Below, one piece after another: positions 6,211 to 61,958 of a DNA stretch of 64,000 bases. The stretch comes from SAR202 cluster bacterium. Lineage in GTDB: Bacteria; Chloroflexota; Dehalococcoidia; Lucifugimonadales; UBA3495. A model generated the notes under the pieces. The model saw only the letters and a program-made list of their open reading frames with translations. It searched no databases and was not told the DNA's origin. How positions within the stretch are numbered: position 1 is the first letter of the stretch; each line of letters begins with the position of its first letter. The stretch lies in contig VGZV01000001.1 of assembly GCA_016872385.1 (NCBI GenBank), positions 22,114 through 86,113 on the forward strand. The letters run 5' to 3'. The position numbers were made by a program, and so were the translations under genes.

Positions 6211-7248
6211 ATGGCGGGACATGGCAGCTGGCGAAATCGAGTATATGGGGGTAAGCAAGTGGCTGAAAATCTGAACATTCTGGTTGGAACAGTCGGCCAA
6301 GGCATAATTCGCAGCCGTGACGATGGGAAAACTTGGCAGCGCGTCGGCATCGGCGCTGGCCTCCATTCCGATGCCCTGGTGCGGTGTATCACCAACCATC
6401 CCAGCCAGCCCCAGGTAGTATTTATCGGCACTGAAAGAGGTCTATACCAGAGCAGGGACGCCGGGCAATCTTGGCGATTTCTTGATTCGCCAATGAACGG
6501 CACTTGTGTGTGGTCGCTGGCCATTGATCCCACGGACACCCACATAATGTATGCTGGGACTGGGACTCCCAACCCGGCCACCATCTTTCGGTCAACTGAT
6601 TCGGGCAAAACCTGGGACCGGAGACCAGTGGTGGTTGCCGCCGAGTGTCCTGCGGTGGGCGTGCCCCGGGTTACCGGCATTGCTATTGATCCTGAAAATC
6701 CCCAGGACATCTGGGCGGGATTTGAGGTGGACGGAGTACGTCACAGCATGGATGGAGGCGAGACCTGGGAACGGCTGGATAGCGAAGCTATTCCCAACCC
6801 CGACGTTCACAACGTGGCCATAGCCCCCGGCCCTCCCAAGACGGTGGTCGTGCTGGTAAATGACGACGTTTTTATGAGCGCCGATGGCGGCGCAAAGTGG
6901 AGGTCGGTGGGAGTACGCCAGAACTTCCCTCTGGGGTATCCCAGGGGTGTTTTGGTTCAGCCGGGTAATCCTAAAACAATCTTTGTCACCCTGGGCGATA
7001 CTACGCCAGGTTCCACTGGGACTATCATGCGTTCCAGGGATACGGGGCGCACCTGGCAGAATCTGACGCTTCCAGTCCAACCCAACACTGCCATGTGGGT
7101 GATACATTCCCAGCCCTTCGCCCCAAACACCTTGCTGGCCGGCAGCCGCTATGGGTATCTGTACCGCAGTGATGATGGCGGGGATAGCTGGGTGAAATTG
7201 TGGCGGGAAGTAAGTGAAGTCTCTTCCATATTGTGGATTCCCAATTAG
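6211..7248 (+). CDS. BNR/Asp-box repeat (sialidase / Ycf48-like beta-propeller) protein
   Basis: Repeated S-x-D-x-G-x-T-W motifs (SRDDGKTW, SRDAGQSW, STDSGKTW, SMDGGETW, SADGGAKW, SRDTGRTW, SDDGGDSW). The start may instead be GTG 6259. Confidence 0.85.
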   Translation: MAGHGSWRNRVYGGKQVAENLNILVGTVGQGIIRSRDDGKTWQRVGIGAGLHSDALVRCITNHPSQPQVVFIGTERGLYQSRDAGQSWRFLDSPMNGTCVWSLAIDPTDTHIMYAGTGTPNPATIFRSTDSGKTWDRRPVVVAAECPAVGVPRVTGIAIDPENPQDIWAGFEVDGVRHSMDGGETWERLDSEAIPNPDVHNVAIAPGPPKTVVVLVNDDVFMSADGGAKWRSVGVRQNFPLGYPRGVLVQPGNPKTIFVTLGDTTPGSTGTIMRSRDTGRTWQNLTLPVQPNTAMWVIHSQPFAPNTLLAGSRYGYLYRSDDGGDSWVKLWREVSEVSSILWIPN

Positions 7249-7368
7249 GCTGACCATGCCTCTGGAACGTCAGCAATAACGAGACACTTTGAGAGAGGAT
7301 GATACACTGGAGGTGTCGGATGAAGTCTGGCACTTTTGAGAAGTGATCTGCTTCTTCACCTAAGATTG

Positions 7369-7640
7369 CCTAACAAAATGAAGGATGTCATTCTGAGGAG
7401 TCCCGATGACATCGGGACGACGAAGAATCTGGGGTGGTGGGCGTTTGCCCCACCCCAGACCCTTCGTCCTTCAGCCGAAGGACTCAGGGTGACAGCTTCG
7501 GCATTTTGTTAGAGCGTGTGTGAGAAATGCCGTCTACCCAGCCCGCTCATCCTGAGCTTGTCGAAGGATGAGTAGCTTTTAGCCCGCTCATGGTTCGACA
7601 AGCTCACCACCAGCTGGAATTGTCACACACCCTCTTAGGG
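7369..7640. mobile_element. B-type MITE (TIR CCTAACAAAATG / CATTTTGTTAGG) carrying a nested C-type MITE
   Basis: Near-identical to the uninterrupted 145-bp copy at 34338-34482. This copy is split after CATTTTGTTA by the element at 7512-7634. Confidence 0.85.
7512..7634. mobile_element. C-type MITE (TIR GAGCGTGTGTGAG / CTCACACACCCTC) inserted into the B element, TSD TTA
   Basis: 13-bp terminal inverted repeats. TTA occurs at 7509-7511 and 7635-7637, versus a single TTA in the empty site at 34478-34480. Confidence 0.85.
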
Positions 7641-7886
7641 GTTCTAAGAAGACTGCCATCCGGAAGCCACTACCAGGAGAAATCCACACCCTCCTGGATT
7701 CGCAGAGCCTCTTGCTGGTTCAATGTCCTCCAGTAGCGCATGGTCATTGCCTGGCTGGCATGGTCAACTGGTTCTGCACTGTAGAAAGTCAGCGCTGTTC
7801 GGATATGCTCCCAGTCAATGAAGGGTGATGGTCAATGACCTCCGACATTAATTCTTTAGTGACTGTGATTATCCTCATACCTGCGG

Positions 7887-9095
7887 TCAGATGACTCCAG
7901 CACCCCGCAGCCGGCCCAAGTCTTCCAGGGGAATGCCCAGCTCACCACAATACACTTCCTCATTATGCTCGCCAAGCCGGGGTGCGGCACGCAAGGCGCT
8001 CATGGCGTTGGCCCCGTCTATCAAAAACCCTGGGCCCGAATATTTTAGCGGGCCAACTTCCGCGTGCTGCAACTCCACAAAGTAGCCACGCTCCGCCAGG
8101 TGGGGAGAGTTAACCACCTGGTCCGGGCTTTGCACCAAGCCAATCACCAGTCCGCGGGCCATGGTCTCGCGCATCAGGTCCAGGTTGTTCCATTGGGCCA
8201 GCTTGGGAGCTATCAGGTCGCGCAGTTCTTCCCAATTTTCTAAACGCAATTGCCTGGAAGCAAATTTGGGGTCAAGGAGCCGTGGTTCTTGCAGGAATTC
8301 CGCCCAGACCTCCATGGGCCTGCCCCCAGTGCCAGCGGTGGTCAAAGTCACTTCCCCATCCCGGGTTGGCAGGTGCATGCCATCCATGACATTGCGGTCG
8401 CCACCCCCGCGGCGCGGACTGCGTCCAGTGAAACTGTAAGGATGTATCAGCCCGGAAGGGGTGCTTATCGCAGCCTCCATAACCGAGACGTCCAGATGTT
8501 TGCCTTCGCCAGTAGTTTCTCTATGGAGGAGCGCCGCCATCACCGCAATGGCCCCGTTGCGGGCCGCCGTTATCTCCATTTGCTGGAGGACCGTTCCCAT
8601 GGGCGGGCGGTCCGCCGAGCCAGTGACCGCGTAGAGGTACCCGCCCAGAGCCTGGGCTATCAGATCATCCCCCAAGTAGTTCGAGTAGGGGCCGTCTTCG
8701 CCGAAGTAGGTAATGGACACCAGCACCAATCGTGGGTTGACTTGTTTAAGAGCTTCGTACCCTATGGCCAGCCGTTCCATTACGCCTGGCGGAAAACTCT
8801 CAATCACCACGTCTGCTTCCTTGACCAGCCTCACTAACAACTGGCGACCCGCGGCCTGGGCCAGATCCAGGGTAACGCCCCGTTTGTTGGTGTTGAACGC
8901 CAGAAAGGCGGTGCTGCGATCTGGATGAGGCTCTCCTCCAATGAAAGGAGGCTCCCGGCGCGCCAGGTCTCCCTGACCGGGCGGTTCAATCTTTATGCAA
9001 TCGGCGCCCTGGTCCGCCAGCAATTTGGCGCAGAAAGCCCCCGATGGCGCAGCGGCCAACTCCACCACTAGTAAATTGGACAATATGCCTGACAC
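7887..9095 (-). CDS. Family III CoA-transferase (CaiB/BaiF)
   Basis: 402 aa. The N-terminus LLVVELAAAPSGAFCAKLLADQGADCIKIEPP is the CaiB/BaiF signature. GTG start with a GAGGAGGA SD. Confidence 0.9.
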   Translation of the reverse strand: MSGILSNLLVVELAAAPSGAFCAKLLADQGADCIKIEPPGQGDLARREPPFIGGEPHPDRSTAFLAFNTNKRGVTLDLAQAAGRQLLVRLVKEADVVIESFPPGVMERLAIGYEALKQVNPRLVLVSITYFGEDGPYSNYLGDDLIAQALGGYLYAVTGSADRPPMGTVLQQMEITAARNGAIAVMAALLHRETTGEGKHLDVSVMEAAISTPSGLIHPYSFTGRSPRRGGGDRNVMDGMHLPTRDGEVTLTTAGTGGRPMEVWAEFLQEPRLLDPKFASRQLRLENWEELRDLIAPKLAQWNNLDLMRETMARGLVIGLVQSPDQVVNSPHLAERGYFVELQHAEVGPLKYSGPGFLIDGANAMSALRAAPRLGEHNEEVYCGELGIPLEDLGRLRGAGVI

Positions 9096-9125
9096 GGAAT
9101 CCTCCTCAGGTCTTTTCGACAGCCG

Positions 9126-10394
9126 TCATTCCGATTCAGCAGCGGTCTCTCCCAGTTTGGGCGTAGAGGAAATTATTCCTTCCCTGGCCAGTTCCTCAAT
9201 CTCTTCGTTGGACAATCCCGCCACGTCTCTCAGCACTTCATGGTTGTGCTGTCCCAGCGTGGCGACGTGCCGAATCGTCAGATTAACACCTGGCATACGG
9301 AAGGGCCGCCCGGCGTACACCCTGGTCCCAATATGGGGAGCTGCCTGGTTCTCAAATTCTTGCATGTAGTGTCTGCCTTGCATGTGGGGGTCCGCCACCA
9401 GGTCCTGGGCGGTAAGGATGGCGCCGGCACATATTCCACGTTCTTGCAGTGTCCGCATTAGCTGGCGGTCATCCTGTGTGGCGGTCCAGGTTCCCAACAG
9501 GTTGTCCAGCTCGCGGCGATGCTGCCAGCGTCCCAACGTGGTCTGGAAACGGGAGTCCGCCGCCCACGCCGGGTCATTCATTACGTCTTGGAGCGCCGTC
9601 CACTGGGCATCCTCCCACACGGAAATAGCTATCCATCGGTCGGTGCCACGGCAAGGATAGACGTTGTGGGGAGACTTCCACAGGTGGCCGCATCCCACGC
9701 GCGGACGCGTGATTCCGCGTTGGGCCTCCAGCACAGCCGGGCCGATGCACGAAATTCCAGTCTCCTGCATAGCCAGATCAATGCGTACTCCCTGGCCCGT
9801 GCGATTCCGGTGGTAAATGGCCAGCAGCAAGGCGTAGGCTACATTGTTCCCGGTGGAGTGGTCCATGTAATTATTGCTGGCGCGCTGGGAAGGCCCACCC
9901 TCGTACCCGGTGAGAAAAGACATCCCGCAAGCGGCGTCCACCGTGCGGGCGCGGGAACCGGCCCTGCGCCATGGACCAGTGTGGCCATAGGCGGTGCTGC
10001 TTAGGGTGATGATTCGCGGGTTGATCTTGGCCAGGCTAGCATGGTCGAAACCGAGGCGCTGCATGGTGCCGGGGCGAAAGTTGTCCGTTACCACGTCGCT
10101 ATTTTTTGCCAGGCGAAGGAAGACCTCCTTGCCTTTTGGGGTAGTCACTTCCAAGCACAGGCTTTGCTTGTTGCGTGTGCCATAATAGGCCAGGTTCCCT
10201 CCCTCATTCCACCACTCTTCTCCGCGCTGATTGTTAGGGAAGGGGCCGGCTTCGCGGTCTTGCAGGTGATCCACGCTTTCAATGCGGATGACCTGTGCGC
10301 CCAGATCTGCTAAAAACGACGTGCCCCAGGGCAGGGAGTGGACCTGCTCCAAGGTCAAGACCCGTATCCCGGCAAGGATTCCCGGCGTTGACAT
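9126..10394 (-). CDS. Family III CoA-transferase (CaiB/BaiF)
   Basis: IRVLTLEQVHSLPWGTSFLADLGAQVIRIES. ATG 10394 is preferred over 10421 because a GGAGGG SD lies 5 nt upstream. Confidence 0.9.
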   Translation of the reverse strand: MSTPGILAGIRVLTLEQVHSLPWGTSFLADLGAQVIRIESVDHLQDREAGPFPNNQRGEEWWNEGGNLAYYGTRNKQSLCLEVTTPKGKEVFLRLAKNSDVVTDNFRPGTMQRLGFDHASLAKINPRIITLSSTAYGHTGPWRRAGSRARTVDAACGMSFLTGYEGGPSQRASNNYMDHSTGNNVAYALLLAIYHRNRTGQGVRIDLAMQETGISCIGPAVLEAQRGITRPRVGCGHLWKSPHNVYPCRGTDRWIAISVWEDAQWTALQDVMNDPAWAADSRFQTTLGRWQHRRELDNLLGTWTATQDDRQLMRTLQERGICAGAILTAQDLVADPHMQGRHYMQEFENQAAPHIGTRVYAGRPFRMPGVNLTIRHVATLGQHNHEVLRDVAGLSNEEIEELAREGIISSTPKLGETAAESE

Positions 10395-10537
10395 GACGGC
10401 CCTCCGGTGAGGTAAAAGCATCCAGGATGCAATGGCCCGCCGCGGGCGGCCTGGCCCCCATCCTGCATAGTCTGGAACATGGTCCAGGACAGTTTACGGG
10501 CATCCTAGCTGTATCGCCGACGGGAGTCAATCCTCCG

Positions 10538-10655
10538 TAGTGTATCAATTTGGGCTTCATCGTTCCGCGTAAGCCGGAACCCAGTGCTGCATCTCAGCCC
10601 ACCCCTATCTGGGCACCGGCGGAAGCCGGTGCGACGGATAATTCCAAAGTAAACT
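10538..10655. mobile_element. A-type MITE-like element (inverted)
   Basis: GTAGTGTATCAATTTGGGCTTCATCGTTCCGCGTAAGCCGGAAC...GGCACCGGCGGAAGCCGGTGCGAC. Confidence 0.7.
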
Positions 10656-10898
10656 GATACACCACACCGCCCAATCCTCTGTACTCGTCGGTGTCCTCTG
10701 GTTATCCCAGGCCGGGGCATGGGCACTTTTGCTATTCCAGGGTCGAACAAGGGACTAACCAGTCGGGCATCTGCAGACCGGTGGGTGGCGCCGAAAGCCA
10801 GAGCCGCTGGTCATGCTCGCTGGCGGCTCTATTGGTCCTCAGCGTCCAGAGTTCCAAGTGTGTATAATAATGGCATCGCAAATCAGGCGGGAGGACGC

Positions 10899-11303
10899 AT
10901 GGCTATAAAAAACTGGGATACTAAGACATCTCGCATTGTATATCACCGCTTCGAAGCGGGAGAATCACTTTTGGAAGGCCTCGAGTCCTTGGCTATTTCA
11001 GAAGGCATCCGTGAAGCTGCCGTAATCTCCTGTATAGGAAGCCTGAGCCAATTAAAACGTCGTAATCTTTGCCGCGGCAAAGATGGTGTGAGAGGGCATG
11101 AGAGGGAAACAATCAACGAAATTCTTGAGTTGGTAAGTGCAGAGGGTTACGTTCAACCTTCGGAGGAGGGTGGAGTCCGGGTACATATACACGTCGCTGC
11201 TGCTCGACCTTCAGGGGAAATAGTCGGCGGCCACTGTGAAGACGCTATATGCTTTACAGGCGCATATTTGTATCTCCAGGTCGTAGAAGAAGCACGGAGT
11301 TGA
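10899..11303 (+). CDS. DUF296 / PCC-domain DNA-binding protein
   Basis: MAIKNWDTKTSRIVYHRFEAGESLLEGLESLAISEGIREAAVISCIGSL...HIHVAAARPSGEIVGGH. A GGGAGGA SD precedes ATG 10899. The upstream part of the track ORF is non-coding. Confidence 0.75.
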   Translation: MAIKNWDTKTSRIVYHRFEAGESLLEGLESLAISEGIREAAVISCIGSLSQLKRRNLCRGKDGVRGHERETINEILELVSAEGYVQPSEEGGVRVHIHVAAARPSGEIVGGHCEDAICFTGAYLYLQVVEEARS

Positions 11304-11878
11304 AACGTTAGGTAGGCTCTAGACTCTAACTCTTCCGCAAATTAGGTGAGGGGGTTCTGCACAAAAGCTGGTCAACAGGCGCTTTGCCTATCGTAGGCTG
11401 CCAACTGGTGCAGGACCCCTTGTCGCAATAAGTCCGGATTGGCCAAACTATATCCCATGTGTTTGGCCGATCTCGCCCAGCAGTTCTGGCCTTCACACTG
11501 GTCAGTACCCCAGGGCGCAGGCAATGCCTCTGGATACCCGCGCAGTCTTTCTGGGATCCTCAGGCTACCCTTTGGAACGGTTTGATGCCGGAATCAGCTT
11601 CTTCTTGGAGCCAGTCATCCAGTGGTGGCGCAGCGCATTCCCACGCCAACGGAAATGTCCAAAGATGGGCATTCCACTCCAACAGCGACGAGTCTATAGG
11701 GGCTTCCCCACGCTTGCGGAGTTCGCCGCTACGAGTCCTGCTGGGATTGAACTGGTCCCTGGCCAGCCAGCAAAACCCCAGCGTAACTAGGACCTACTTG
11801 GATTGGGCTGGAATAATGTAGTTGAATTGATTTCAGGCGTAGGCCACCGCCGCGCCCTGGTTTTAACGGAGGAACTCC

Positions 11879-12706
11879 ATGCAGATTGTCGATTCGCAAA
11901 TACACCTCTGGCAAAATGCCCGCATGGCCTCCCACCATAGGCAAATCCCCACTTTTTCAATGGACGACGCCTTGAAGGAGATGGCGGAGGCCGGGGTGGA
12001 AGCGGCGGTGTTGCATCCGCCCAGCACCTTGGGCGAGGCGGTGAATGTTCAGGCTGTGGAAGCGGCGCGGCGGCGACCGGACAAATTCTGCATTCTGGGC
12101 AATTTTGACCTTCAGCGCCCTGACCGGCGGGACATCGTCAAGAACTGGCGGCAGCGGCCGGGCATGGTGGGTTTCCGCTTCACCTTCAACCAACCGCACC
12201 AGCAGGCCTGGTGGAGCAACGGCTCCCTGGACTGGTTCTGGGCCGCGTGCGAGGAAGAAAGGTTGCCCGTGGGCTTGCTGGCGGGCGGCCACATGGCTGA
12301 CCTGGGCCAAATAGCCCAGCGCCATCCTGGGCTGAAGCTGCATATTGACCACTATGGCCGGGGCGGCGGCGGCAGCGGCGGGAAAGATGACGCCGCCTTT
12401 GCTGACTTGGGGGAGATGCTGGCCTTGGCGAAATACCCTAACGTGGCAGTCAAGCTCTCTGGAGGGCCGAGCTACTCGAGCCAACCCTATCCCTACCGCA
12501 ACATCCACAAATACATCCAGCAAGTCTTTAACGCCTTCGGGCCGCAGCGCTGCTTCTGGGGCACCGACCTAACCCGCATGCCGTGCCCGTACCGGCAATG
12601 CGTGACCATGTTCACGGAAGAGCTCCCCTGGCTCCGCGGCAGGGACAAAGAGCTAGTCATGGGGGATGCAGTCTGCGACTGGCTGGGTTGGAAACGGCCC
12701 ATCTAG
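11879..12706 (+). CDS. Amidohydrolase-2 family metal-dependent hydrolase (TIM barrel)
   Basis: The N-terminus MQIVDSQIHLW is the HxH-type metal motif. 275 aa, with a GGAGGA SD. Confidence 0.8.
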   Translation: MQIVDSQIHLWQNARMASHHRQIPTFSMDDALKEMAEAGVEAAVLHPPSTLGEAVNVQAVEAARRRPDKFCILGNFDLQRPDRRDIVKNWRQRPGMVGFRFTFNQPHQQAWWSNGSLDWFWAACEEERLPVGLLAGGHMADLGQIAQRHPGLKLHIDHYGRGGGGSGGKDDAAFADLGEMLALAKYPNVAVKLSGGPSYSSQPYPYRNIHKYIQQVFNAFGPQRCFWGTDLTRMPCPYRQCVTMFTEELPWLRGRDKELVMGDAVCDWLGWKRPI

Positions 12707-12737
12707 CGCAAGTCAGGGCGCTGGCAACAGAATTCAA

Positions 12738-13029
12738 TAGTGCGTCCGTTTGCTTAAAGGCTCAACTCGCCACACCGGCGAAAGCCGGTGTCCAGATATA
12801 GGATACATACAGTTCTCCACTGGATTCCGGTTTCCGGCGGAATGACTAAGAGCGTGTGTGAGAAATGCCGTCTACCCAGCCCGCTCATCCTGAGCTTGTC
12901 GAAGGATGAGTAGCTTTTAGTCCGCTCATGGTTCGACAAGCCCCGACCTGGTCGGGATCCCGATACGTCGGGACTCACCACCAGCGGGAATTCTCACACA
13001 CCCTCTAAGGGCTAATTGATATACTACCC
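12738..13029. mobile_element. A-type MITE carrying a nested C-type MITE
   Basis: Matches the uninterrupted 132-bp A copy at 43169-43300. It is interrupted after GGAATGAC-TAA by the element at 12850-13005. Confidence 0.8.
12850..13005. mobile_element. C-type MITE (longer subfamily with internal 33-bp hairpin insert), TSD TAA
   Basis: TIRs are GAGCGTGTGTGAG and CTCACACACCCTC. TAA occurs at 12847-12849 and 13006-13008. A 33-bp insert, CCCGACCTGGTCGGGATCCCGATACGTCGGGAC, is present relative to the 7512 copy. Confidence 0.85.
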
Positions 13030-13228
13030 AGAATTCTGATGCATTGCTCCTCATGTACATTACAAAGTAGCCGGAGGTTGCTTACGCAGGTACGGAATGG
13101 GTAAATTCGTAAATTGTGGGGTATGCCACGTCCTGGTCAAGGAGTATTGGAGGAATTAGCATTTACCAGGGAGCAGTTTGTTGAGGCGTCGGTCCAGTCT
13201 TGGGAATCTCGTCTGAGGGAAAAACATC

Positions 13229-14631
13229 ATGACCTCTCTTCAGGTAGCAAATAAACATGGTGGACATGCTACTTTGGACGTGGTTGTTCTTGACCAGTTT
13301 AATAAAGGAATACGCGGCCAAGTGGTGACTCCCGGCCAACCCAATTATGACCAGGCGCGGTCCCTCTGGAATGGCAATGCGGACAAACATCCGGCGCTAA
13401 TTGTCCAGTGTGACGGGGTGGCTGACGTCATCGCCTGTGTCAATTTCGCCCGGGACAACGGCCTGCTGCTCTCGGTACGGGGGGGCGGGCACAGCTTTCC
13501 CGGCACCTCGGTGGCCAACGACGGCCTGGTAATTGACCTGTCAGGTATGCACAGCATCCGGGTAGACCCGGTGCGGCGCACTGCCCGGGCGGAAGGGGGA
13601 ACCCGCTGGGGGGCTTTCGACCACGCCACCCAGGCCTTTGGCTTGGCCACTACCGGGGGCACTAACACTGATACCGGTATTGGTGGGCTGTCCCTGGGCG
13701 GCGGCCACGGCTGGCTGGGCGGTAAGCACGGGCTTGCCTTGGACAATCTGATCTCAGTGGACATCGTCACCGCCGACGGAAAACTGCGGATTGCCAGCCA
13801 GGAAGAGAACGCAGACCTTTTCTGGGCAGTGCGGGGTGGTGGCGGAAACTTTGGGGTGGTGACCTCCTTTGAGTACCGGCTTCACCCCGTGGGAGAATTG
13901 CTGGCGGGAATGCTGATCCATCCTATCGAGCGGGCCGCCGAAGCCTTTCGTTTCTACCGGGACTTCACTCGAAATGTTCCGGATGAGTTTACCAGTTGGT
14001 TTGTTTTGATGGTCTCCCCAGAAGGCCAGCGTGTGTGCGTCATTGTGCCCTGCTACAATGGGCCCCTGGCCGAGTGGGAGAAGTACCTAGAACCTTTACG
14101 AGAGTTCGCGCCTCCTGTAGCTGACTTAGTAGGCCCGATGAAGTATGAAGCCCTGCAGGCGCTTACTGACGACGCGCTAAAGGCCGGGCGGCAATACTAC
14201 GAAAAATCCCTCTTTCTAAAGGAAATCAGCGACGAGGCCATAGAAACCATCATCGAACACTACGACCGGGCCACGGCCCCCTACCGGTGGTGTTGCTTCA
14301 GCAGGTGGGCAACGCGGTGCTGCGGGTGCCCAATGCGGCGACGGCCTACGGCCATCGGGACGGGGCATACAACTGTCTTGCCATCCCGGTGTGGGACGAC
14401 CCTGGGGAAATGGAGATTCACCGCAAGTGGGCCCGAGACTTGTGGGAGGCCTTACTGCCCCATGGCACCGGCGGCTGGTACATAAATAACATAGGTAGTG
14501 AGGAGGACGACGGGGCGCAGGTGGTCCGCTCCTCCTTCGGCCCCAACTACCGGCGGCTGGCGCAAGTTAAGCATAAGTACGATCCAGACAACCTTTTCTG
14601 CCACAACCAGAACATTAGGCCTTTGGCTTAA
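13229..14631 (+). CDS. FAD-binding oxidoreductase with C-terminal BBE (berberine-bridge) domain, interrupted by a 1-nt frameshift
   Basis: The FAD_binding_4 pattern is LLLSVRGGGHSFPG...GIGGLSLGGGHGWLG. The C-terminal AYGHRDGAY...NYRRLAQVKHKYDPDNLF is in a second frame (track ORF 14287-14631). The frames join at the C5 run 14277-14281. Confidence 0.85.
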
Positions 14632-15050
14632 GCTGTAACAAAATTCGGGTGGGGAGCCGGCCTTAGTTGGAAACGGTTCTCATGTCAGGAGATTCCGTAT
14701 GGTTGAGGAGTCTCCTGACAATAATACCGGGCTCCCAGCGGAACCTGTCTTCCAACCGCAGGGTCTTTCAGGTTCTAGTTGCTGGCGCAAGACATATGCA
14801 CAGGAGGGCAAAGCAGCGCAAGACGTAGCTCTTCCTTGCGCACTTGCGGCAGTTTGAACAGTTACGCCAAAAGTGTACCGTAGCGCAGCCAAGGGAAACC
14901 TGCTAGAATGGATGCAGTGGTAAATATCAGCAGCCCGCCGCTCTGGCTGGGTTTAGTGCAGGACTCCCTTGTCTCTCCTGTCCTCCTCACCCCTGGAAAT
15001 CGCGCTGACTGAAGTTTCCCAACTTTTCTAACTCAAGGAGTTGGCGCGCT

Positions 15051-15398
15051 ATGCCAGACAAGACCCTTACCTGCCGCGATTGTGGCACAAATTTCATCTT
15101 CACCACTGCTGAACAGGAATTTTTCGCCAGCAAGGGCTTCACCAACGAGCCTGGCCGGTGTTCCGCGTGCCGGAGCGCCCGTAATGAATCCAGGGGCGGT
15201 TCCGGTGGCCGTGGTTACGGCGGCGGGGGCGGGTACGAACGCCGTTCCCAGCAGTTATTCCCCGCCGTTTGCGCCCAGTGCAGCAAGGATACCCAGGTGC
15301 CTTTCCAGCCCCGGGGCGACCGCCCAGTTTATTGTTCCACCTGCTATGAGACCCAGCGGGGCAGTTCTGGCCAGTCTCGCCGTGGCGGCAGCCGTTGA
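15051..15398 (+). CDS. Zinc-ribbon protein (two CxxC...CxxC units joined by an RGG/Gly-rich linker)
   Basis: TCRDCGTNFIFTTAEQEFFASKGFTNEPGRCSACR ... CAQCSKDTQVPFQPRGDRPVYCSTCY. The stop overlaps the helicase start. Confidence 0.8.
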   Translation: MPDKTLTCRDCGTNFIFTTAEQEFFASKGFTNEPGRCSACRSARNESRGGSGGRGYGGGGGYERRSQQLFPAVCAQCSKDTQVPFQPRGDRPVYCSTCYETQRGSSGQSRRGGSR

Positions 15399-16729
15399 TT
15401 GCTGAGGCGACCTCGTTCGCCAACGCCCGTATTCAACCAGCCACCCAACGCGCAATCTCACAAATGGGCATCACGGCGCCCACTCCCATTCAGGCCCAGG
15501 CAATACCAATGCTTCTTGCCGGAAATGACGTGGTGGGCCAAGCCCGCACCGGTTCCGGCAAGACCTTGGCATTCACCATCCCAATAGTGGAGCGGTGCAA
15601 CCCCAAGGTTCGTAGCGCTCAGGCCCTGGTCCTGGTGCCCACCCGCGAACTGGCCATTCAGGTGGGTGAGGTTATGGCGCACTTCTGCGCCGCCCGCCGC
15701 CTGCGCATGACGCTGCTTTACGGCGGCCGTTCCCTGGCCCCAGAGCGTTACTGGCTGGCAGGCGGAGCGCAGGTGGTGGTAGGCACCCCAGGCCGCACCC
15801 TGGACCACTTGCGCCAGGGCAGCCTTTCTCTCAACCAGTTGCACATGCTGGTGCTGGACGAAGGCGATGAGATGCTGGACCGGGGGTTTGCTCCCGATGT
15901 GGAGCGTATCCTGGCCCATACCCCGGCCAGTAGGCAGACCGCCCTTTTTTCCGCCACCATGCCCCGGTGGGTTATGGAGACTGCCTCCCGCCACCTCAGA
16001 AGCCCGGTCATGGTCCAAATTGACCGCGAAACGCAGCCGCCGCCGGAGATAGTGCATTCGGTCTATGAGGTAGCCCCCGGAGACAAGTTCAACGCGTTGC
16101 GGACCTTGCTGGACCAACGTGGCAACGGGCCTGTGCTGGTGTTCGGGCGCACCAAGCAGGGGGTGAAGAGACTGGCCCGGCAACTTGACGCCCTGGGGTA
16201 CCCGGTGGCGGCGTTGCAGGGAAACCTCAGCCAGAACACCCGGGAACGGGTATTGGGCGACTTCAAACTTGGCAACGTGCCCATCCTGGTGGCTACCAAC
16301 GTGGCGGCTCGCGGCCTGGACGTACTGGGCATTGAACGGGTAATCAACTACGAGCTTCCTGAGTCGCCGGAGCTTTTCACCCACCGCGTTGGCCGCACCG
16401 GGCGGATGGGGAACCAGGGCGAGGCTGTCACCTTTGTCACTCCGGAGGATGCCGGCAAATGGCGGCAGATTGAGCGGTCTCTCGGCCGCCGGTTGCCCCG
16501 CCGGGCCTGGCCGAAAGGCACGGCCTCCTCTGGGCAAGCAGGGCTTCCAGTAAACTCTCCCCAATCTTCGCTCGCCAGCGTCCAGGGAAATGGTCACGTC
16601 GGGAGCCAACCACACCAAGGCTCGGCGCATGCCCCTCGGCTAGCAAATGCTAGGGGCGGTTACCGGTTCAGAACGCCTGTCCGCCGCCCTGCGCCGCGCA
16701 GGACTCTTGGAGGACAACCAGGGCAGTAA
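15395..16729 (+). CDS. DEAD-box ATP-dependent RNA helicase
   Basis: Q motif, GSGKT (motif I), DEGD (variant DEAD box), SAT and HRVGRTGR are all present. The TTG start overlaps the upstream stop (TTGA). Confidence 0.9.
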   Translation: MIAEATSFANARIQPATQRAISQMGITAPTPIQAQAIPMLLAGNDVVGQARTGSGKTLAFTIPIVERCNPKVRSAQALVLVPTRELAIQVGEVMAHFCAARRLRMTLLYGGRSLAPERYWLAGGAQVVVGTPGRTLDHLRQGSLSLNQLHMLVLDEGDEMLDRGFAPDVERILAHTPASRQTALFSATMPRWVMETASRHLRSPVMVQIDRETQPPPEIVHSVYEVAPGDKFNALRTLLDQRGNGPVLVFGRTKQGVKRLARQLDALGYPVAALQGNLSQNTRERVLGDFKLGNVPILVATNVAARGLDVLGIERVINYELPESPELFTHRVGRTGRMGNQGEAVTFVTPEDAGKWRQIERSLGRRLPRRAWPKGTASSGQAGLPVNSPQSSLASVQGNGHVGSQPHQGSAHAPRLANARGGYRFRTPVRRPAPRRTLGGQPGQ

Positions 16730-16810
16730 GTCTAGCGCGGTAGGCACAATTAGGGGCCATGCGTTGGCAGTGGTGGAAAAGCTCCGTACCCCAGCAAAGT
16801 CCAGAAAGCG

Positions 16811-17060
16811 ATGGTCGCGCAATTCAGGGTGGATCCCCAATCGCTAGCCAAGCTTCGCCTCCTGGATAAAGCCGGACGCATCGCCCGAAGAGGGGTGAGG
16901 TTCATCCGCATCTTCGACCCCACCCCGGTCAGCGGACTAGCCGCCCAACCCCCACTTTGAGGACCTGGATTTGGCGGGGCAGCGCCAGTCCCTCCTGTTT
17001 ACTGGCCATATTGAATTGGACGGCTCCGTCTACCTGGCCCAGGTTGCCGCTGCCGGATGA
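16811..17060 (+). CDS. Possible small unannotated ORF (~83 aa) split by a 1-nt indel
   Basis: ATG 16811 MVAQFRVDPQSLAKLRLLDKAGRIARRGVRFIRIFDPTPVSGLAAQP, then after the C5 run 16949-16953 the +1 frame reads HFEDLDLAGQRQSLLFTGHIELDGSVYLAQVAAAG-stop (17058-17060). No family was recognised. Confidence 0.3.
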
Positions 17061-17131
17061 TGTCCCCCCTCACCTAGCGCCGCCCCGTGTTGCGTCCCAC
17101 TGGGGCGGCAATGCTATGAATGCAATCCTTG

Positions 17132-17277
17132 GGTACTGGTTCAGTTTGTCTCGCAAATGAGGAAGAAGTTGCTCGTCGCACCCCGACAAGTCGGGGTGCC
17201 CAGATACAGAATAGATACAGTTCTCTACTGGATTCCGGCTTCCGCCGGAATGACGGGTTTCAAACTGAACCAGTACT
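17132..17277. mobile_element. A-type MITE variant with 16-bp perfect TIR
   Basis: The TIR is GTACTGGTTCAGTTTG (17132-) / CAAACTGAACCAGTAC (-17277). The internal sequence is CCAGATACAGAATAGATACAGTTCTCTACTGGATTCCGGCTTCCGCCGGAATGAC. Confidence 0.8.
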
Positions 17278-17414
17278 CAATCCGCAATCTTGACAAGCTT
17301 GGGCATTTGTAACAAAATCAGGGGCAATCACCTTGCGGATGGTTCTATCCCGTGGCAGGGCTGTACCATACTACTCTCCCTGGTCAAACTGGACGCTTTT
17401 CTGCAGGAGTAGCC

Positions 17415-18212
17415 ATGACAACTACGTTAAGCGGCAGAGAGACTTCTATTACCGTCGCGGGCGCCAAGGTGCAAATGTTTTCCGGCGGCTCCGGCCCGGC
17501 CCTGGTCTTCCTCCACGGCGCGGGCGGCAGCGCAGGCTGGCAGGCCTACCACCAGGAGCTATCCAAGAAGTACACGGTGTATGTGCCTTCCCAGCCCGGC
17601 TTTAACGGCACGGAAAGGCCGGAGTGGGTCTATACCATTAACGACGTGGCCCACTTCAACCAGGCCATGGTGCAGCAGCTGGGACTGGACCATTACATTC
17701 TGATGGGTTCGTCCATGGGCGGCTGGATCGCTGCGGAAATGGCGGCCATGTGCCACCATAACCTGCGCGGGCTGATTCTGGTGGACGCGGCAGGCATCAA
17801 GCCCGAAAACTCGGACATCGCCGAGATTTTCATGGTGTCTGCTCAGACCCGCCTCAAGCAGCGGTTCTTCGATCCCACCCAGGTGCCCAATTATCAGCAG
17901 CTTACCCGCCAGCTTTCTCCTGAGGAGCAGCAGGTGGAACACGCCAACCGGGAGATGGCCTCCCGGCTGTGCTGGCGGCCCTACTTGCACAATCCCAGCC
18001 TGCCACACTATCTGGGTGCGGTGCCCACGCCTACCCTGATTGTGTGGGGCAAGCAGGACGCCATTATCCCGGTAGAGTGCGGCGAGCTGTACCAGAAGGC
18101 CCTGCCCAACGCTACCCTGCGCATTATTGACCACTGCGGCCATTCCCCAGCCCTGGAGAAGCCCCAGGAGTTCTTGAAAACGGTCACGGACTTCCTGTCC
18201 CGCCTCAAGTAA
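17415..18212 (+). CDS. Alpha/beta hydrolase
   Basis: PALVFLHGAGGS and the nucleophile elbow GSSMGG, with a C-terminal DHCGH. ATG 17415 has a GCAGGAG SD. Confidence 0.85.
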   Translation: MTTTLSGRETSITVAGAKVQMFSGGSGPALVFLHGAGGSAGWQAYHQELSKKYTVYVPSQPGFNGTERPEWVYTINDVAHFNQAMVQQLGLDHYILMGSSMGGWIAAEMAAMCHHNLRGLILVDAAGIKPENSDIAEIFMVSAQTRLKQRFFDPTQVPNYQQLTRQLSPEEQQVEHANREMASRLCWRPYLHNPSLPHYLGAVPTPTLIVWGKQDAIIPVECGELYQKALPNATLRIIDHCGHSPALEKPQEFLKTVTDFLSRLK

Positions 18213-18242
18213 TTAACCGGCATAGCAGAGCGGAGGATAGTC

Positions 18243-19385
18243 ATGGTAGAAGTGTACTGGTTCTCAGAGCAGCCCTATGGCCACATCACCGATGAAGACC
18301 TGGCTCCCTATGAGTCGGGACGGATGCACTTTCCCAACAAGAATTTTGACCCGCAGAAAGCCCAAGTGCTGTACCAGAACTACCACGACCAGTACGCCTG
18401 GGCCGACGAGATGGGTTTCGACGGTATCATGTCCAATGAGCACCACAGCGCCTACTGGTGCATGAAGCCTTCCGTCAATATTGACGGCGCGGTTATTGCC
18501 AAGGTTACCAAGCGGGCCAAGATTGCCCTGCTGGGCAACGTCATCGCCCTCAACGACCCGGTGAAAATGGCCGAGGAACTGGCGATGCTGGACTGCATCT
18601 CCGGCGGGCGGCTAATTTCCGGATTTGTGCGGGGCACGGCAGTGGAAACCCTGCACGCGGGCATCAGCCCCACGGAGAACCGTGACCGGTTTGAAGAGGC
18701 CCACGACCTGATTATCAAGTGCTGGACTACTCCCGGCCCCTTCCGCTGGGAAGGCCGCTACTTCCCCCACCGCATGGTCAACCCCTGGGTGCTGCCCATC
18801 CAAAAACCCCATCCGGCCATCTGGTTCCCGGGCACCGGCAGTCCAGAGAGCGTCATCTGGGCTGCCCAGCACCAGTACCCGTACATGAATCTGGGTGCTT
18901 TGCTGGACCTGACCATTCAGTTGAAGGGGATTTATCAGGAGACTGCCCACGAAATGGGGTACGATCCCGGCCCGGAGCACTTTGGCTACTTGATGCGGGT
19001 GCTGTGCGCCGACACCGACGAGCGGGCATACGAAATTGGCAAGACCTTTTTGTGGACCCAGACCCACCGGCAGCGCGGCCCCATTGAGTTCAACGATCCG
19101 CCAGGCTACCAGTCCCGGGAGGCCCTGCGCATCAAGATGACCCGGCCCATGATTGGCACCGGCACCATTGGCCGGCAGATGACTTACGACGATCTCCAGG
19201 CGGCTTACAACATCGTAGTGGGTAGCCCGGAAACCGTCATCAAAAAGCTGCGCCACGTCCGCAAGGAGCTGAACCCTGGCTACATCCTGATTTATGGCAA
19301 CGAGGGCTTGATGCCCCACCAGGATGTGATGCGCTCCATCGAGTTGCTGGGCAGCAAGGTAATTCCGGCCATTAAGGAAGACTAA
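18243..19385 (+). CDS. LLM-class flavin-dependent oxidoreductase (luciferase-like monooxygenase)
   Basis: 380 aa. FDGIMSNEHH and the overall LLM pattern. Confidence 0.75.
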   Translation: MVEVYWFSEQPYGHITDEDLAPYESGRMHFPNKNFDPQKAQVLYQNYHDQYAWADEMGFDGIMSNEHHSAYWCMKPSVNIDGAVIAKVTKRAKIALLGNVIALNDPVKMAEELAMLDCISGGRLISGFVRGTAVETLHAGISPTENRDRFEEAHDLIIKCWTTPGPFRWEGRYFPHRMVNPWVLPIQKPHPAIWFPGTGSPESVIWAAQHQYPYMNLGALLDLTIQLKGIYQETAHEMGYDPGPEHFGYLMRVLCADTDERAYEIGKTFLWTQTHRQRGPIEFNDPPGYQSREALRIKMTRPMIGTGTIGRQMTYDDLQAAYNIVVGSPETVIKKLRHVRKELNPGYILIYGNEGLMPHQDVMRSIELLGSKVIPAIKED

Positions 19386-19510: not shown

Positions 19511-19587
19511 CGGGGCGTAGCGCAGCCCGGTAGCGCACCTGCATGGGGTGCAGGGGGTCGCCAGTTCAAATCTGGCCGCCCCGACCA
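19511..19587 (+). tRNA. tRNA-Pro (anticodon GGG), CCA encoded
   Basis: Acceptor CGGGGCG/CGCCCCG. Anticodon stem CCTGC/GCAGG with loop AUGGGGU. T arm GCCAG-TTCAAAT-CTGGC, then a terminal ACCA. Confidence 0.9.
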
Positions 19588-21665: not shown

Positions 21666-21766
21666 TGTTAGAGCCTGTGCTGAAAGTGCCCGATCATGCT
21701 TCGACAAGCTCACCATGAGCGAGAGAAAAGCGCTCATACTGGGCTTGTCGAAGGGTGGGCGCTGGT
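21666..21766. repeat. C-type repeat (degenerate)
   Basis: GCCCGATCATGCTTCGACAAGCTCACCATGAGCGAG...GGCTTGTCGAAGGGTGGGCG. Confidence 0.7.
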
Positions 21767-22003
21767 AGTGCACAGCGCTTTTTGAACACGCGCTAGTACT
21801 ACGGCAGTAAATTTGCCTGTCCTGTTGTGTCATGTCCCTGAACTCCCGTTTATCCACAAACGTTGGTATGATGCCGATTTACTTGGGTAAGTGCCATGTC
21901 AATAATACGTTTTGTATATCGTTTTTACGGTGTGGATGCAATTTTTCTTCATAACAGGAGTGCCAAAAGCATTGCACCAGCTTGACCGTGGAGGGTAGAC
22001 TAA

Positions 22004-25134: not shown

Positions 25135-25290
25135 GAGGGCGTGTGACAATTCCCGCTCGTGGTGAGTCCCGACGTATTGGGATCCCGACCAGGTCGGGGC
25201 TTGTCGAACCATGAGCGGGCTAAAAGCTACTCATCCTTCGACAAGCTCAGGATGAGCGGGCTGGGTAGACGGCATTTCCCACACAAGCTC
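25135..25290. mobile_element. C-type MITE, long subfamily, inverted orientation
   Basis: Reverse complement of the 12850-13005 copy, including the same 33-bp internal insert. Its end abuts the bicupin SD (TTAGGAGGT). Confidence 0.85.
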
Positions 25291-25305
25291 TTAGGAGGTA
25301 TTGAG

Positions 25306-26025
25306 ATGCCGCCGCTAATCAGGAATTACCGGAAAGTTTATCAGCCGGGCGGCCCCAGCGTGCGTCTGGTTTCGTTGGAAGACAATCCACCGACTTGCAC
25401 CATGACTTACTCGGTCATTGCACCGGGCAAAACCAGTTCCCACCACCTGCACCCCTGGGAGCATGAGGTATTCATCCTGGAAGGATCTGGTGCGCTGGTG
25501 TGCGATGGCAGAGAGTATCCCATCGCCGCAGGCGACGCCATGCTAATTCCGGCCAACGTAGACCACGTGACGCGTAACACTGGCCGCACTTCCATACGGC
25601 GCATCGAGGTCAATCCCCTGGCCGCTTCTCGTAACCCCAGCGCCGCCGTACAGGGCGTCAGGGGCACAGGCCAGCCGCCGGTAGTCCGCAACTTGCGCCA
25701 GATAGACCAGAGCGACGGCCCGGCCCGCCCAATACTTAATGCGGCGGATGGCGCGGTGAACTACATAATGGCCTTCCGCTCCCTGGACCCGGGCAGCGTG
25801 GCTCCCAACCACGTCCATCCCGCCGAGCACCTGGCCTACATGATGGAAGGGGGCTGCGACCTGGTGGTGGACGGCCGGGCCTATCCGGTGCAGGAGGGGG
25901 ACGCAGTCCTGGTGCAGCCCAACGCCGCCCACGAGTGGCGCAGCAACAGCCCCCGGCGGGCCGCCTGGCTGGTTTTAACCCCAGATAGCGGAACATTTAG
26001 ACCGCCAGCCTTGCCTCAAAAGTAG
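25306..26025 (+). CDS. Bicupin (two cupin_2 domains)
   Basis: HHLHPWEHEVFILEGSG...GDAMLIPANVDH and a second HVHPAEHLAYMMEGG...GDAVLVQPNAAH. ATG 25306 has an AGGAGG SD. The upstream part of the track ORF is MITE sequence. Confidence 0.85.
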   Translation: MPPLIRNYRKVYQPGGPSVRLVSLEDNPPTCTMTYSVIAPGKTSSHHLHPWEHEVFILEGSGALVCDGREYPIAAGDAMLIPANVDHVTRNTGRTSIRRIEVNPLAASRNPSAAVQGVRGTGQPPVVRNLRQIDQSDGPARPILNAADGAVNYIMAFRSLDPGSVAPNHVHPAEHLAYMMEGGCDLVVDGRAYPVQEGDAVLVQPNAAHEWRSNSPRRAAWLVLTPDSGTFRPPALPQK

Positions 26026-33945: not shown

Positions 33946-34015
33946 CACCAGCAACAGCGATCGCATGACCGTTCCGCCTGGGTATTTGAATAGCTTGTGT
34001 ATAAGGAGGCCAGCC

Positions 34016-34333
34016 ATGAAGATGATACGTGCGGTGGTCCGCCCGGAAAAAGAGGAAGCCGTAGGTGCAGCCCTGGCCAAGGCTGGGTTCCCGGCGCTTA
34101 CCAAATGGGATGTGGTGGGGCGGGGCAAGCAACAGGGCATTCAAGTGGGCAGCCACATTTATGATGAGCTGGCCAAGTCCCTGGTGCTAATAGTGGTCAA
34201 TGATGACCAGGTGGAAAAGGCAGCCAAGGTGATTCATGATGCAGCCTTCTCCAGATATCCGGGCGACGGCAAAATCTTCGTCACGCCGGTGGATACCGCT
34301 TATACCATCCGCACTGGCAAGTCAGAGCTTTAG
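34016..34333 (+). CDS. P-II-like nitrogen regulatory protein (short non-canonical T-loop)
   Basis: MKMIRAVVRPEKEE...VVGRGKQQGIQVGSHIYDE...GDGKIFVTPVDTAYTIRTG. An AAGGAGG SD precedes ATG 34016. Confidence 0.85.
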   Translation: MKMIRAVVRPEKEEAVGAALAKAGFPALTKWDVVGRGKQQGIQVGSHIYDELAKSLVLIVVNDDQVEKAAKVIHDAAFSRYPGDGKIFVTPVDTAYTIRTGKSEL

Positions 34334-34337
34334 AGTG

Positions 34338-34482
34338 CCTAACAAAATGAAGGATGTCATTCTGAGGAGTCCCGATGCTATCGGGACTGCAAAGAAGCTG
34401 GGGTGGGGCAAGCGCCCACCACCCCAGACCCTTCGTCCTTCAGCCGAAGGACTCAGGGTGACAACTTCGGCATTTTGTTAGG
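34338..34482. mobile_element. B-type MITE, intact 145-bp copy
   Basis: TIR CCTAACAAAATG / CATTTTGTTAGG. Near-identical to 7369-7511 and serves as the empty-site reference for the nested insertion there. Confidence 0.85.
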
Positions 34483-34607
34483 GGTTTTTATTCACCTTCC
34501 CGGGCGGCGGGTGCGCCACTGGGAAGGGCCGCTACTGGCCCAGCAACATTCCAAGAAAGAGAGCGCCCCTGTGTGCCAGGAGGCGCTCCTTGACGTATAG
34601 TCACCGG

Positions 34608-38126: not shown

Positions 38127-38144
38127 AAGCTTGTATCAGAAGGA

Positions 38145-38240
38145 GACCGCTCATGGTGAGCCCGTCGAACCATGAGCGGTGCGGATACGCTCCGCCCCTT
38201 CGGCTGGCTCATGGCAAGCTCAGAGCTTGTCGAAGAGCGG
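38145..38240. repeat. C-type repeat (degenerate composite)
   Basis: GACCGCTCATGGTGAGCCCGTCGAACCATGAGCGGT ... CAGAGCTTGTCGAAGAGCGG. Confidence 0.7.
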
Positions 38241-43024: not shown

Positions 43025-43168
43025 TCCAAAGTCCGTCTGTCTTAAATCCGTGCTGGGAGCCACTGGTTCTTGCCCCTGGCCTGCAACCGTCCCTGCCACC
43101 GGTGGGGTCAACCCTAGTGTGTGCCGGGAGCAGTTCTACCTTATTCCGACAATGATTTGCTCCATTGA

Positions 43169-43300
43169 GTAGTGTATCAGTTTGCTTAAGGCCTCAACTT
43201 GTCACACCGGCCTTCGCCGGTGTCCAGATACAGAATAGATACAATTCTCTACTGGATTCCGGCTTCCGCCGGAATGACGAAGGGCTAATTGATACACTAC
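43169..43300. mobile_element. A-type MITE, intact 132-bp copy
   Basis: TIR GTAGTGTATCA / TGATACACTAC. Internal CACACCGGCCTTCGCCGGTGTCCAGATA...CTGGATTCCGGCTTCCGCCGGAATGAC. Confidence 0.85.
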
Positions 43301-55314: not shown

Positions 55315-57033
55315 CTACACCAGGAAGAATAACTGGGCCAGGCTCAGGCGCTCCGCCGGGGGCACGGTAGCCAACTCGCCGTCTACCCGCACCTGGTAGG
55401 TGTCCGGGTTTACCTCGATGTGGGGCGTGCGGTCGTTGCGCACCATCTGGCGCTTGGTGATGGTGCGGCAGCCCAGCACCGGCGCCACCATCCGCCGCAG
55501 CCCCAGCTGCTGGTGCACCCCCAGCTCGTAGGCGCGGCGGGAGACGAAGGTGACGCAGGTGCGGGCCAGGGCTGACCCCAGCGCCCCGTACATGGGCCGG
55601 TAAAACTGCGGCTCGGCGGTGGGGATGGAGCCGTTGGGGTCGCCCATCAGCGCCCAGGCCACCATGCCACCTTTGATAATCATCTTGGGCTTGGCCCCAA
55701 AAGTGCCCACCGGCCACAGCACAATATCCGCCAGCTTGCCCGGCGTCAAAGACCCCACCAGGTGGCTGATGCCGTGGGTGATGGCTGGATTGATGGTCAA
55801 CTTGGCCAGGTAGCGCAGCACCCGGAAGTTGTCATGCTCCGCAGCGTCCTCCGGCAGCTTCCCTTTCATCTGCTTCATCTTGTCGGCAGTCTGGAACAGG
55901 CGGGTAAAGTTCTCGCCCACCCGGCCCATGGCTTGGGAGTCGGAGGAGTACATACTTATGACGCCCAGGTCGTGGAGCACATCTTCCGCGGCCATGGTCT
56001 CCGGGCGGATACGGCTCTCGGCGAAGGCCACGTCCTCGGCCACGCCGGGGTTCAGGTGGTGGCACACCATCAGCATGTCCATGTGCTCGGCCAGGGTGTT
56101 GACCGTGTAGGGCCTTGTAGGGTTGGTGGAGGAGGGCAGCACGTTCAGGTGGGCAGAGATGCGGATGATGTCCGGGGCATGGCCGCCGCCCGCACCCTCG
56201 GTGTGGTAGGTGTGGATGGTGCGGCCCGCGATGGCGGCGATGGTGTCCTCCACGAACCCAGCCTCGTTCAGGGTGTCGGTATGGATGGCCACCTGCACGT
56301 CGTGGGCGTCAGCCGCCCGCAGGCAGGCGTCAATGGCGGCGGGGGTGGTGCCCCAGTCCTCATGGAGCTTCAACCCGCAGGCCCCGGCCTCGATCTGCTC
56401 CTCCAGCGGGGAAAGTTCGCTGGCGTTGCCTTTGCCCAGCAGGCCCCAGTTGATGGGCAGCGCCTCCGCCGCCTCCAGCATCCGGTGGATGTGCCACGGG
56501 CCGGGGGTGCAGGTGGTGGCGCGGGTGCCGTCGGCGGGGCCGGTGCCGCCGCCAATGTGGGTGGTGATGCCGTTGGACAGGGCGTGGTACACCTGCTGGG
56601 GCGCAATCATGTGGATGTGGGTGTCTATGCCGCCAGGAGTGGCGATAAGGTGTTCCCCGGCGATGACTTCCGTGCCCGCGCCCACCACCAGGCTGGGGTC
56701 CACTCCGTCCATGACGCCGGGGTTGCCCGCCTTGCCGATGCCAACGATGCGGCCATCCTTGACCCCCAGGTCGGCCTTGATGATGCCCAGCAGGGGGTCC
56801 ATGACGATGACATTGGTAATCACCAGGTCCAGAGCGCCGTTGCGGTTGGTGGCGTTGGGGGACTGGCCCATGCCATCCCTGGCGGTCTTGCCGCCGCCAA
56901 AGACCAGCTCGTCGCCGGGGGTAATCAGGTCCCGCTCCACCTGGCAGATGAGGGATGTATCGGCCAGCCGGAACCGGTCCCCGGCGGTGGGGCCATAAAG
57001 CTCAGCGTAGTGGCGGCGGCTAATGCGGGCCAT
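55315..57033 (-). CDS. ureC: Urease alpha subunit
   Basis: 572 aa. [41 protein letters not shown] and other urease active-site motifs. Confidence 0.97.
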
Positions 57034-57055
57034 GCTAATTAGCTCCCTTGAGGCG

Positions 57056-61844: not shown

Positions 61845-61958
61845 TCCGTCTCCTGTGGGATTGGCTCCGGCAGGCCGGCACCGATTTTTTAGGTAACACC
61901 CCAAATAGTATTGGCGGATCAAAAGCCTGTTCTAAAACGCCATTAATACTTCCACGCA

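Follow-up and report, generated by a model that had tools for sequence, protein, structure and literature searches.

Within the window (the whole 64,000-nucleotide stretch analysed), a copy of one short repeat is interrupted by a second, which raises the question of whether the second is a mobile element that jumped into the first and, if so, which kind of transposase carried it there. The first part can be answered at the locus itself: a 123-bp non-coding MITE, C, is inserted in an older MITE, B, and has duplicated a 3-nt TTA. An uninterrupted B, in the stretch 34338-34482, has the 3′ end ...CATTTTGTTAGGGG and carries TTA once (34478-34480), whereas the filled copy (from 7369) reads ...CATTTTGTTA, then 123 nt (7512-7634), then TTAGGGG, with TTA on both sides of the insert (7509-7511 and 7635-7637). 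The single and double triplets are thus read from the sequences of the two B copies, both of which run as the original prediction had given them, and the copies are 89% identical over the 150 nt up to the insertion point. The 13-nt arms of C, GAGCGTGTGTGAG on the left (7512-7524) and GTCACACACCCTC on the right (7622-7634), are complementary at 11 of 13 positions; inverted arms of this length had been proposed, but with the right arm written as CTCACACACCCTC, its first base wrongly C. Allowing up to two mismatches, the 13-mer occurs six times in the window compared to 1.4 expected, a count reached by 0 of 100 shuffles.

The limits of B were set by comparing six copies (two in the window, one at locus L087, two at L106 and one at L107), which give a length of 155 bp and ends at 7364/7644 and 34333/34487; the 145-bp element described earlier at 34338-34482 has the correct sequence, but B extends 5 nt further on each side. 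Its TIRs are GA(G/T)TGCCTAACAAAATG and CATTTTGTTAGGGGTT(C/T), or, across all six copies, GA(G/T)(T/C)GCCTAACAAAATG to CATTTTGTTAGGGGTT(C/T/G). In the filled copy the left 148 nt of B (7364-7511, + strand, left TIR GATTGCCTAACAAAATG) end with the left copy of the TTA, C follows on the + strand, and the terminal 10 nt of B (TTAGGGGTTC, 7635-7644, +) begin with the right copy, the whole being enclosed by B's own TAA duplication (7361-7363 and 7645-7647). The intact 155-bp B (34333-34487, +) is a paralogous empty site with its target TTA free, and has its own TTA duplication (34330-34332 and 34488-34490). The L087 copy is likewise flanked by TTA/TTA, and the flanks of the other three are imperfect. 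B is itself a MITE with GAG ends and TWA flanks, probably belonging to the same transposase superfamily.

The nested pair lies between convergent genes, one for a BNR-repeat protein (6211-7248, +) and one for a CoA-transferase (7887-9095, -). No Rfam family matches B or C, and a simple scan of 7200-7900 gave no promoter and no terminator match. The region folds far better than its shuffles (z=-8.8), as nested inverted repeats necessarily do. At the intact B, a P-II nitrogen-regulator gene (33965-34333) stops at a TAG whose TA belongs to B's left TTA duplication and whose G is B's first base; the frame without B would extend about 36 codons further. All of the Pfam P-II domain lies within the first 119 of the 122 residues. 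The stop codon, made by the duplication and the element together, suggests that B has altered or supplanted the end of this gene.

C is an independent multi-copy MITE, found outside B in unique DNA, in a different repeat family and at about 35 distinct metagenome sites. A second window copy, of a 156-bp subfamily (12850-13005, +; arms complementary at 12 of 13 positions), is flanked by TAA (12847-12849 and 13006-13008) and is nested in a repeat of the D3 family (about 12738-13027). The filled D3 copy reads GAC-TAA-[C]-TAA-GGGCTAATTG, and uninterrupted paralogues, such as that at 43164-43300 (+), read GAC-GAA-GGGCTAATTG (GAA at 43279-43281); the lengths fit a 3-nt duplication, and the paralogue triplet is one base off TAA. 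The third copy (25135-25290, -), also 156 bp and lying in unique DNA, is flanked by TAA/TGG and lacks an intact duplication. In the stretch 25291-25305 its end directly adjoins a Shine-Dalgarno-like GGAGG and is separated by 12 nt from the downstream start codon of a bicupin gene (25303-26025).

Beyond these three copies, searching JGI metagenomes for a 20-mer from inside C gave 39 loci, all from the lake samples Ga0194110/121/131/132, with C lengths of 82, 84, 115, 122-123 and 156-157 bp; window and lake loci together give 38 distinct flank contexts. Copies of full length share 96-99% identity with that at 12850 in the window. Nine distinct copies of 122-123 bp (window and metagenome loci) make the 123-bp form a subfamily of its own, C123, to which the insert in B belongs, and the 156-bp form has 33 nt more, a pair of small hairpins placed within the loop of an internal hairpin. 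C therefore has the features by which a MITE is described: it is short (123 bp, variants 82-157 bp) and non-coding, with TIRs, a constant 3-nt duplication and many dispersed copies. The 96-99% identity among C copies compared to 84-92% among B copies agrees with the order of nesting and indicates that C spread later than B, and the movement of C was presumably fairly recent.

The duplication was examined over 65 elements, comprising the C family and TIR-sharing elements of sister genomes, de-duplicated by their flanks. Identical 3-nt flanks occur in 45 of the 65, compared to 39% expected from flank frequencies (binomial p=6.8e-7). The flanks are TNA in 126 of 130 cases, with A or T as the central base in about 90% (TWA). 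Reverse-complementary flank pairs are found for only 11 of the 65, which shows that the TIR does not extend into the triplet and that the triplet is directly duplicated. Identical flanks are absent from 20 elements, including the window copy at 25135-25290. Aligning copies from the window, the metagenome loci and the sister genomes, a check proposed with the original prediction, gives a consistent TIR, GAG(C/G)GTGTGTGA(G/C)AA(A/T)T at both ends of C, and a 3-nt TNA duplication. Two other readings of the triplet were ruled out: TWA as part of the TIR, the flanks being direct and not inverted repeats, and a 2-nt TA duplication of the IS630/mariner type, since AA rather than TA stands beside the left GAG terminus in TAA-flanked copies.

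A scan of the genome collection with the TIR consensus led, among the matches listed, mostly to Dehalococcoidia MAGs. Paired inverted TIRs there delimit two size classes, 121-153 bp (MITEs) and 884-899 bp, and elements of either class are flanked by TAA, TTA, TGA or TCA. The longer elements have the TIR GAGGGTGTGTGAGAAA and TAA/TTA flanks, and are present in several copies per genome in Dehalococcoidia MAGs. The original prediction, which had C mobilised by a transposase making 3-bp TWA duplications, and expected that transposase to be found with matching IS ends, is borne out on both points by the flanks above and by IS of 883-899 bp in related Dehalococcoidia/Chloroflexota genomes, with C-type ends GAGGGTGTGTGA[G/C]AA... 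and TWA duplications. Single sister genomes hold at least 5-8 near-identical copies among the fetched loci, and the IS thus is or was active in them. For instance, locus L119 (Chloroflexi MAG GCA_026713265.1) and locus L120 each contain an 883-bp IS with TTA/TTA flanks and the TIR GAGGGTGTGTGACAAT, which is identical to the right end of C (16/16 nt); the left end of C matches the IS end GAGGGTGTGTGAGAAATCCCGT at 20 of 22 nt. The likeness of C to the IS is limited to these roughly 20 terminal nucleotides, and C is therefore no simple internal-deletion derivative of the IS.

The IS encodes orfA, matching PF13340 (DUF4096), and orfB, matching PF01609 and PF13586 (DDE domain), which a -1 shift joins into a 261-aa protein. 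This protein scores 261 bits against the NCBIfam model NF033580 (transpos_IS5_3; E=1e-77, profile 1-258 of 258), for which the cut-off is 110 bits. Of 8000 candidates scored for homology, 7996 reached E<=1e-30, and the best homologues bearing names are annotated as IS5 family transposases of Chloroflexi and Dehalococcoidia. The frameshift is required in the copies at L020, L049 and L119; the L120 copy is a single uninterrupted ORF of 279 aa. A Kozakia plasmid carries a 916-bp proteobacterial relative (56% aa identity) with ends GAGCCTG...CTC and flanks TAA/TCA, and the closest named relative seen carries an 'ISAli1 family' annotation (55.5% identity). With its 883-899 bp and GAG...CTC ends the IS fits what we take to be the ISfinder description of the IS1031 group (850-1050 bp, 3-bp duplication, ends GAG). 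Recognition of a three-nucleotide insertion site is a common feature of that group, whose members have a single ORF, whereas the IS427 group has two frameshifted ORFs (PMC2516522). The partner IS thus belongs to the IS5 family and is IS1031-like, its subgroup being ambiguous because a 3-nt target, an IS1031 trait, is combined in most copies with the frameshifted ORFs of IS427.

We consider it very probable that C was moved in trans by an IS5-family DDE transposase from such an IS1031-like IS of about 885 bp. The transposase would recognise the TIRs GAG(C/G)GTGTGTGA(G/C)AA(A/T)T over some 16-20 nt, the element would enter a C-TWA-G target cut with a 3-nt stagger, and repair of the offset ends would duplicate TWA; here C would have struck the TTA 10 nt inside the right end of the older B. 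Staggered cutting is general knowledge of DDE transposases, and we apply it to C by inference. Cognate transposases were sought nearer to C as well. Searching the 64-kb window with the cognate IS proteins (tblastn) gave no homologue (best E=0.8), so that the earlier statement that the window contains no transposase gene is confirmed as far as this IS5-type family is concerned. An intact IS was sought in the same metagenome population and none was found there; the only relative found is one defective locus, seen in several samples (L093/L099/L124/L125). This IS is 785 bp long (L099:2119-2903), lacks about 28 codons of orfA, encodes a transposase 68% identical to that of the sister-genome IS, and adjoins an 82-bp C through a shared TTA. 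Its TIRs, GAGCCTGTGTCAAAAG and GAGGGTGTCTAAAAAG, are closer to the window's C2 repeats (1676-1820 and about 21671-21790) than to C.

These last observations bear on whether C, as a true MITE with a 3-nt duplication, owes its movement to some other transposase, whether from a further IS5 subgroup (IS427 or ISL2, for instance) or from another element in the host genome. The best-matching IS ends do come from other genomes, the remnant in the population has somewhat different ends, and the transposase family is very large (the 7996 of 8000 above), so that many relatives could share TNA targeting. However, C and these IS have in common 16-20 terminal nucleotides, the duplication and the end triplet GAG, and no other candidate emerged. 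A different enzyme therefore seems very improbable, and we infer that C was moved by a transposase of this IS5 class rather than another.

Somewhat less credible still is that B::C is a composite B subfamily spreading as one unit, with no insertion event at the window locus, the circumstance that the original prediction had named as speaking against it. A second B::C123 exists at L087:5085-5366, and its junctions (TTTTG-TTA-[C123]-TTA-GGGG) and orientation are those of the window copy. However, no two of the six B copies are less alike than those of the two composites, at 84% identity, whereas the C at L087 shows about 98% identity to the reference C copy across the parts that both contain; such figures leave the idea that the 123 bp are integral to a longer B unsupported. 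Moreover, C occupies more than 30 sites without B, four B copies are without C, and C is found at other, similar (C/T)TTTG-TTA sites (L093/L099 and L114), which points to a target hot spot. With B parts so dissimilar and C so alike, the window and L087 composites would instead be independent hits of the same favoured TTA, for which the identities are suggestive, not conclusive. Transposition of B::C as a composite was rejected on the identities of the B copies.

Much of C consists of a hairpin module, which has an invariant 13-nt loop, TGAGCTTGTCGAA, and an 8-bp stem, GCTCRYSS/SSRYGAGC. The window has 16 copies where 1 is expected; they lie on both strands and within several repeats, C and C2 among them. 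The module is also found in some sister Dehalococcoidia genomes. The nested C has two inverted copies (loops at 7553-7565, +, and 7594-7606, -), and others lie at 1631-1643, 1703-1715, 1766-1778, 12891-12903, 21700-21712, 25237-25249, 61962-61974, 62002-62014 and further places. A comparison of 41 distinct modules, drawn from the window and the loci, shows compensatory changes in the stem: the two pairs next to the loop alternate between CG and GC (22/13 and 20/14), and the third between TA and CG (26/10). A literature search for the loop gave no match beyond unrelated primers. Rather than filler, the module may be a structure under selection for binding protein or nucleic acid. The extra 33 nt of the 156-bp C (12942-12974 and 25166-25198; hairpins CCCGACCTGGTCGGG and TCCCGATACGTCGGGA) sit exactly in the loop of the second module, and since similar TCCCGA...TCGGGA hairpins occur in B and elsewhere, small hairpins may be inserted into or exchanged between repeats.

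Least credible of all is that C is a REP/BIME-like hairpin cassette, placed by a RAYT or IS200/IS605-type single-strand mechanism or by recombination and flanked by TTA through coincidence: C is indeed mostly hairpin modules with a conserved loop and covarying stems, the modules do occur outside it and B::C does fold far better than shuffles (the z=-8.8 above), but its defined ends carry TIRs common to a transposase-encoding IS, its flanks are TNA in 126 of 130 cases and identical in 45 of 65, the filled and empty sites differ by exactly the element plus 3 nt, and we know of no target duplications or TIRs in REP/RAYT or IS200/IS605 elements.

The target sites of these elements can be described further. 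Over 53 reconstructed sites with perfect duplications, the target logo has C at -1 (77%), T (100%), W (90%), A (100%) and G at +3 (77%), with weaker preferences for T at -2 and A at +4. The preferred target thus resembles cTC-TWA-GAg, which is the same as an element end followed by its duplication, and in 14 of the 53 cases the target lies directly against the end of a further GAG-ended element. Related elements often stand end to end with one TWA shared between them, MITE beside MITE or IS beside MITE (L027:3774-3948; L114:11340-11545; L099:2119-2988; L107:9848-10030), an arrangement consistent with the match of the logo to the element junction. Each insertion leaves a ...CTC-TWA-GAG... junction of the same form as the preferred target. 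It is possible, though we hold it only tentatively and think it rather doubtful as a whole, that this leads MITEs to favour sites in or beside the ends of resident GAG-ended elements, and that the hairpin module is a selected binding structure. Were this true, it would lead to nested and abutted arrays, new modular MITE families and substrates for recombination in SAR202 genomes.

Other repeats of the window touch on the same families. The C2 family, related to C, has ends GAGCYTGTGYTRAAAG and lies at 1601-1820, about 21671-21790, about 61945-62040 and 38140-38235; its type of end matches the TIRs of the defective metagenome IS (L099:2119-2903), and a C2 copy meets a partial C-like element at 1672-1676, the two sharing a TGA. 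The D3 family and its relatives, of about 135 bp (about 12738-13027, 43164-43300, 2794-2930 and 17195-17276; also 57211, 57842, 58432 and 60038), have the TIR GTAGTGTATCAGTTTGC, internal hairpins CACCGGCGAAAGCCGGTG and GGATTCCGGCTTCCGCCGGAATGAC, and an end type unlike that of the GAG families. An Rfam match to 5_ureB_sRNA (98.8 bits, 56583-56884, +) falls inside long ORFs at about 55315-57042 and is most likely conserved coding sequence, not an sRNA. The sole tRNA of the window is at 19511-19584.

Exact protein matches (NCBI MBM3941335/6/9) assign the window to a MAG of a SAR202 cluster bacterium (Chloroflexota). We also looked for this site in further strains. Exact matches to the proteins of the P-II and cupin genes and to P0123 and P0129 were looked up; no record offered an orthologous empty site, and no filled/empty polymorphism between strains was found: the only orthologous JGI contig retrieved, Ga0194132_10000439 (L123), also carries B::C and is 100% identical to the window over the whole intergenic region. 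Sister Dehalococcoidia genomes have only the TIRs and hairpin modules in common with B and C, the internal sequences of B and C being absent from them, and viral contigs scanned for the TIR pattern gave no match. One ENA metagenome contig (L001) is 99.98% identical to window 7509-19095 (L001:11456-11600 against window 7500-7640), keeps the TTA flank, has 2 SNPs in the distal part of C and passes into unrelated DNA exactly past the outer end of C. The switch reflects either a mis-join during assembly or, in another strain, recombination of one C copy with a second. Two further contigs, from Logan, stop inside C copies (window 7581 and 12874).

What the locus provides is a transposition footprint that documents itself, with filled and empty sites in one window, and a link from the short repeats of uncultured freshwater SAR202 (Dehalococcoidia) to an IS5-type transposase and a C-TWA-G target. 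In practical terms, C elements explain broken or mis-joined short-read contigs, such as the two Logan contigs and the ENA contig that switches at a C end, and they can be used as markers for strain tracking and should be masked or annotated in these MAGs. C is a SAR202-specific family of a known kind, namely IS5-family-derived MITEs with a 3-nt TWA duplication, and its mechanism holds nothing unexpected, making it an ordinary example of well-known mobile DNA. Of mild interest beyond this are a preferred target resembling the junction that the element itself forms, the nested and abutted arrangements that result, and a hairpin module whose loop is conserved.

The nearest known systems are the IS1031-like IS5 elements and the MITEs derived from them, which have in common with the present family the 3-nt TNA duplication and GAG...CTC ends. 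The IS are alike in length (883-899 bp) and in a DDE transposase with DUF4096 and DDE_Tnp_1 domains (transpos_IS5_3), and the MITEs in being short and non-coding and in sharing only their TIRs with the IS; the relative in Kozakia (Acetobacteraceae) shows the same pattern of ends and flanks. The differences lie in the host, here a freshwater SAR202/Dehalococcoidia, and in the TIR GAGGGTGTGTGA, which is specific to this clade among the matches listed. Many IS copies here also differ from the IS1031 group in having orfA and orfB joined by a -1 frameshift, an IS427 trait (PMC2516522). A similar picture emerges for Chunjie, a MITE of Geobacter uraniireducens, which is intergenic, with conserved TIRs, direct repeats, several lengths and partial copies; as a review describes it, it is like C in its intergenic position, TIRs, direct repeats and size variants (PMC10969869). 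It differs in having no sequence relationship to C.

REP/BIME repeats are mobilised by RAYT-type HUH enzymes and, to our knowledge, are without TIRs or target duplication. They resemble C in being intergenic and modular with dense hairpins, and differ in that C has both TIRs and duplications. Tourist-like MITEs are eukaryotic and depend on an additional Myb-like protein, ORF1. In maize and rice they are frequently nested one within another, which has served as a built-in empty-site control. They are like C in the TAA/TTA duplication, the short TIRs and the high copy number. However, the host here is bacterial, and the IS encodes a transposase only and nothing like the Myb-like ORF1. Tourist-like MITEs such as mPing belong with PIF/Harbinger elements, which make a 3-bp TAA/TTA target duplication (PMC2836001), and PIF/Harbinger and IS5 transposases have been analysed as one phylogenetic group (PMC12730594). 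C is best regarded as a mechanistic analogue only of Tourist-like MITEs and not as a member, and the nested pair described here offers a bacterial counterpart to nested Tourist/PIF-Harbinger MITEs that leaves knowledge of how such elements work unchanged.
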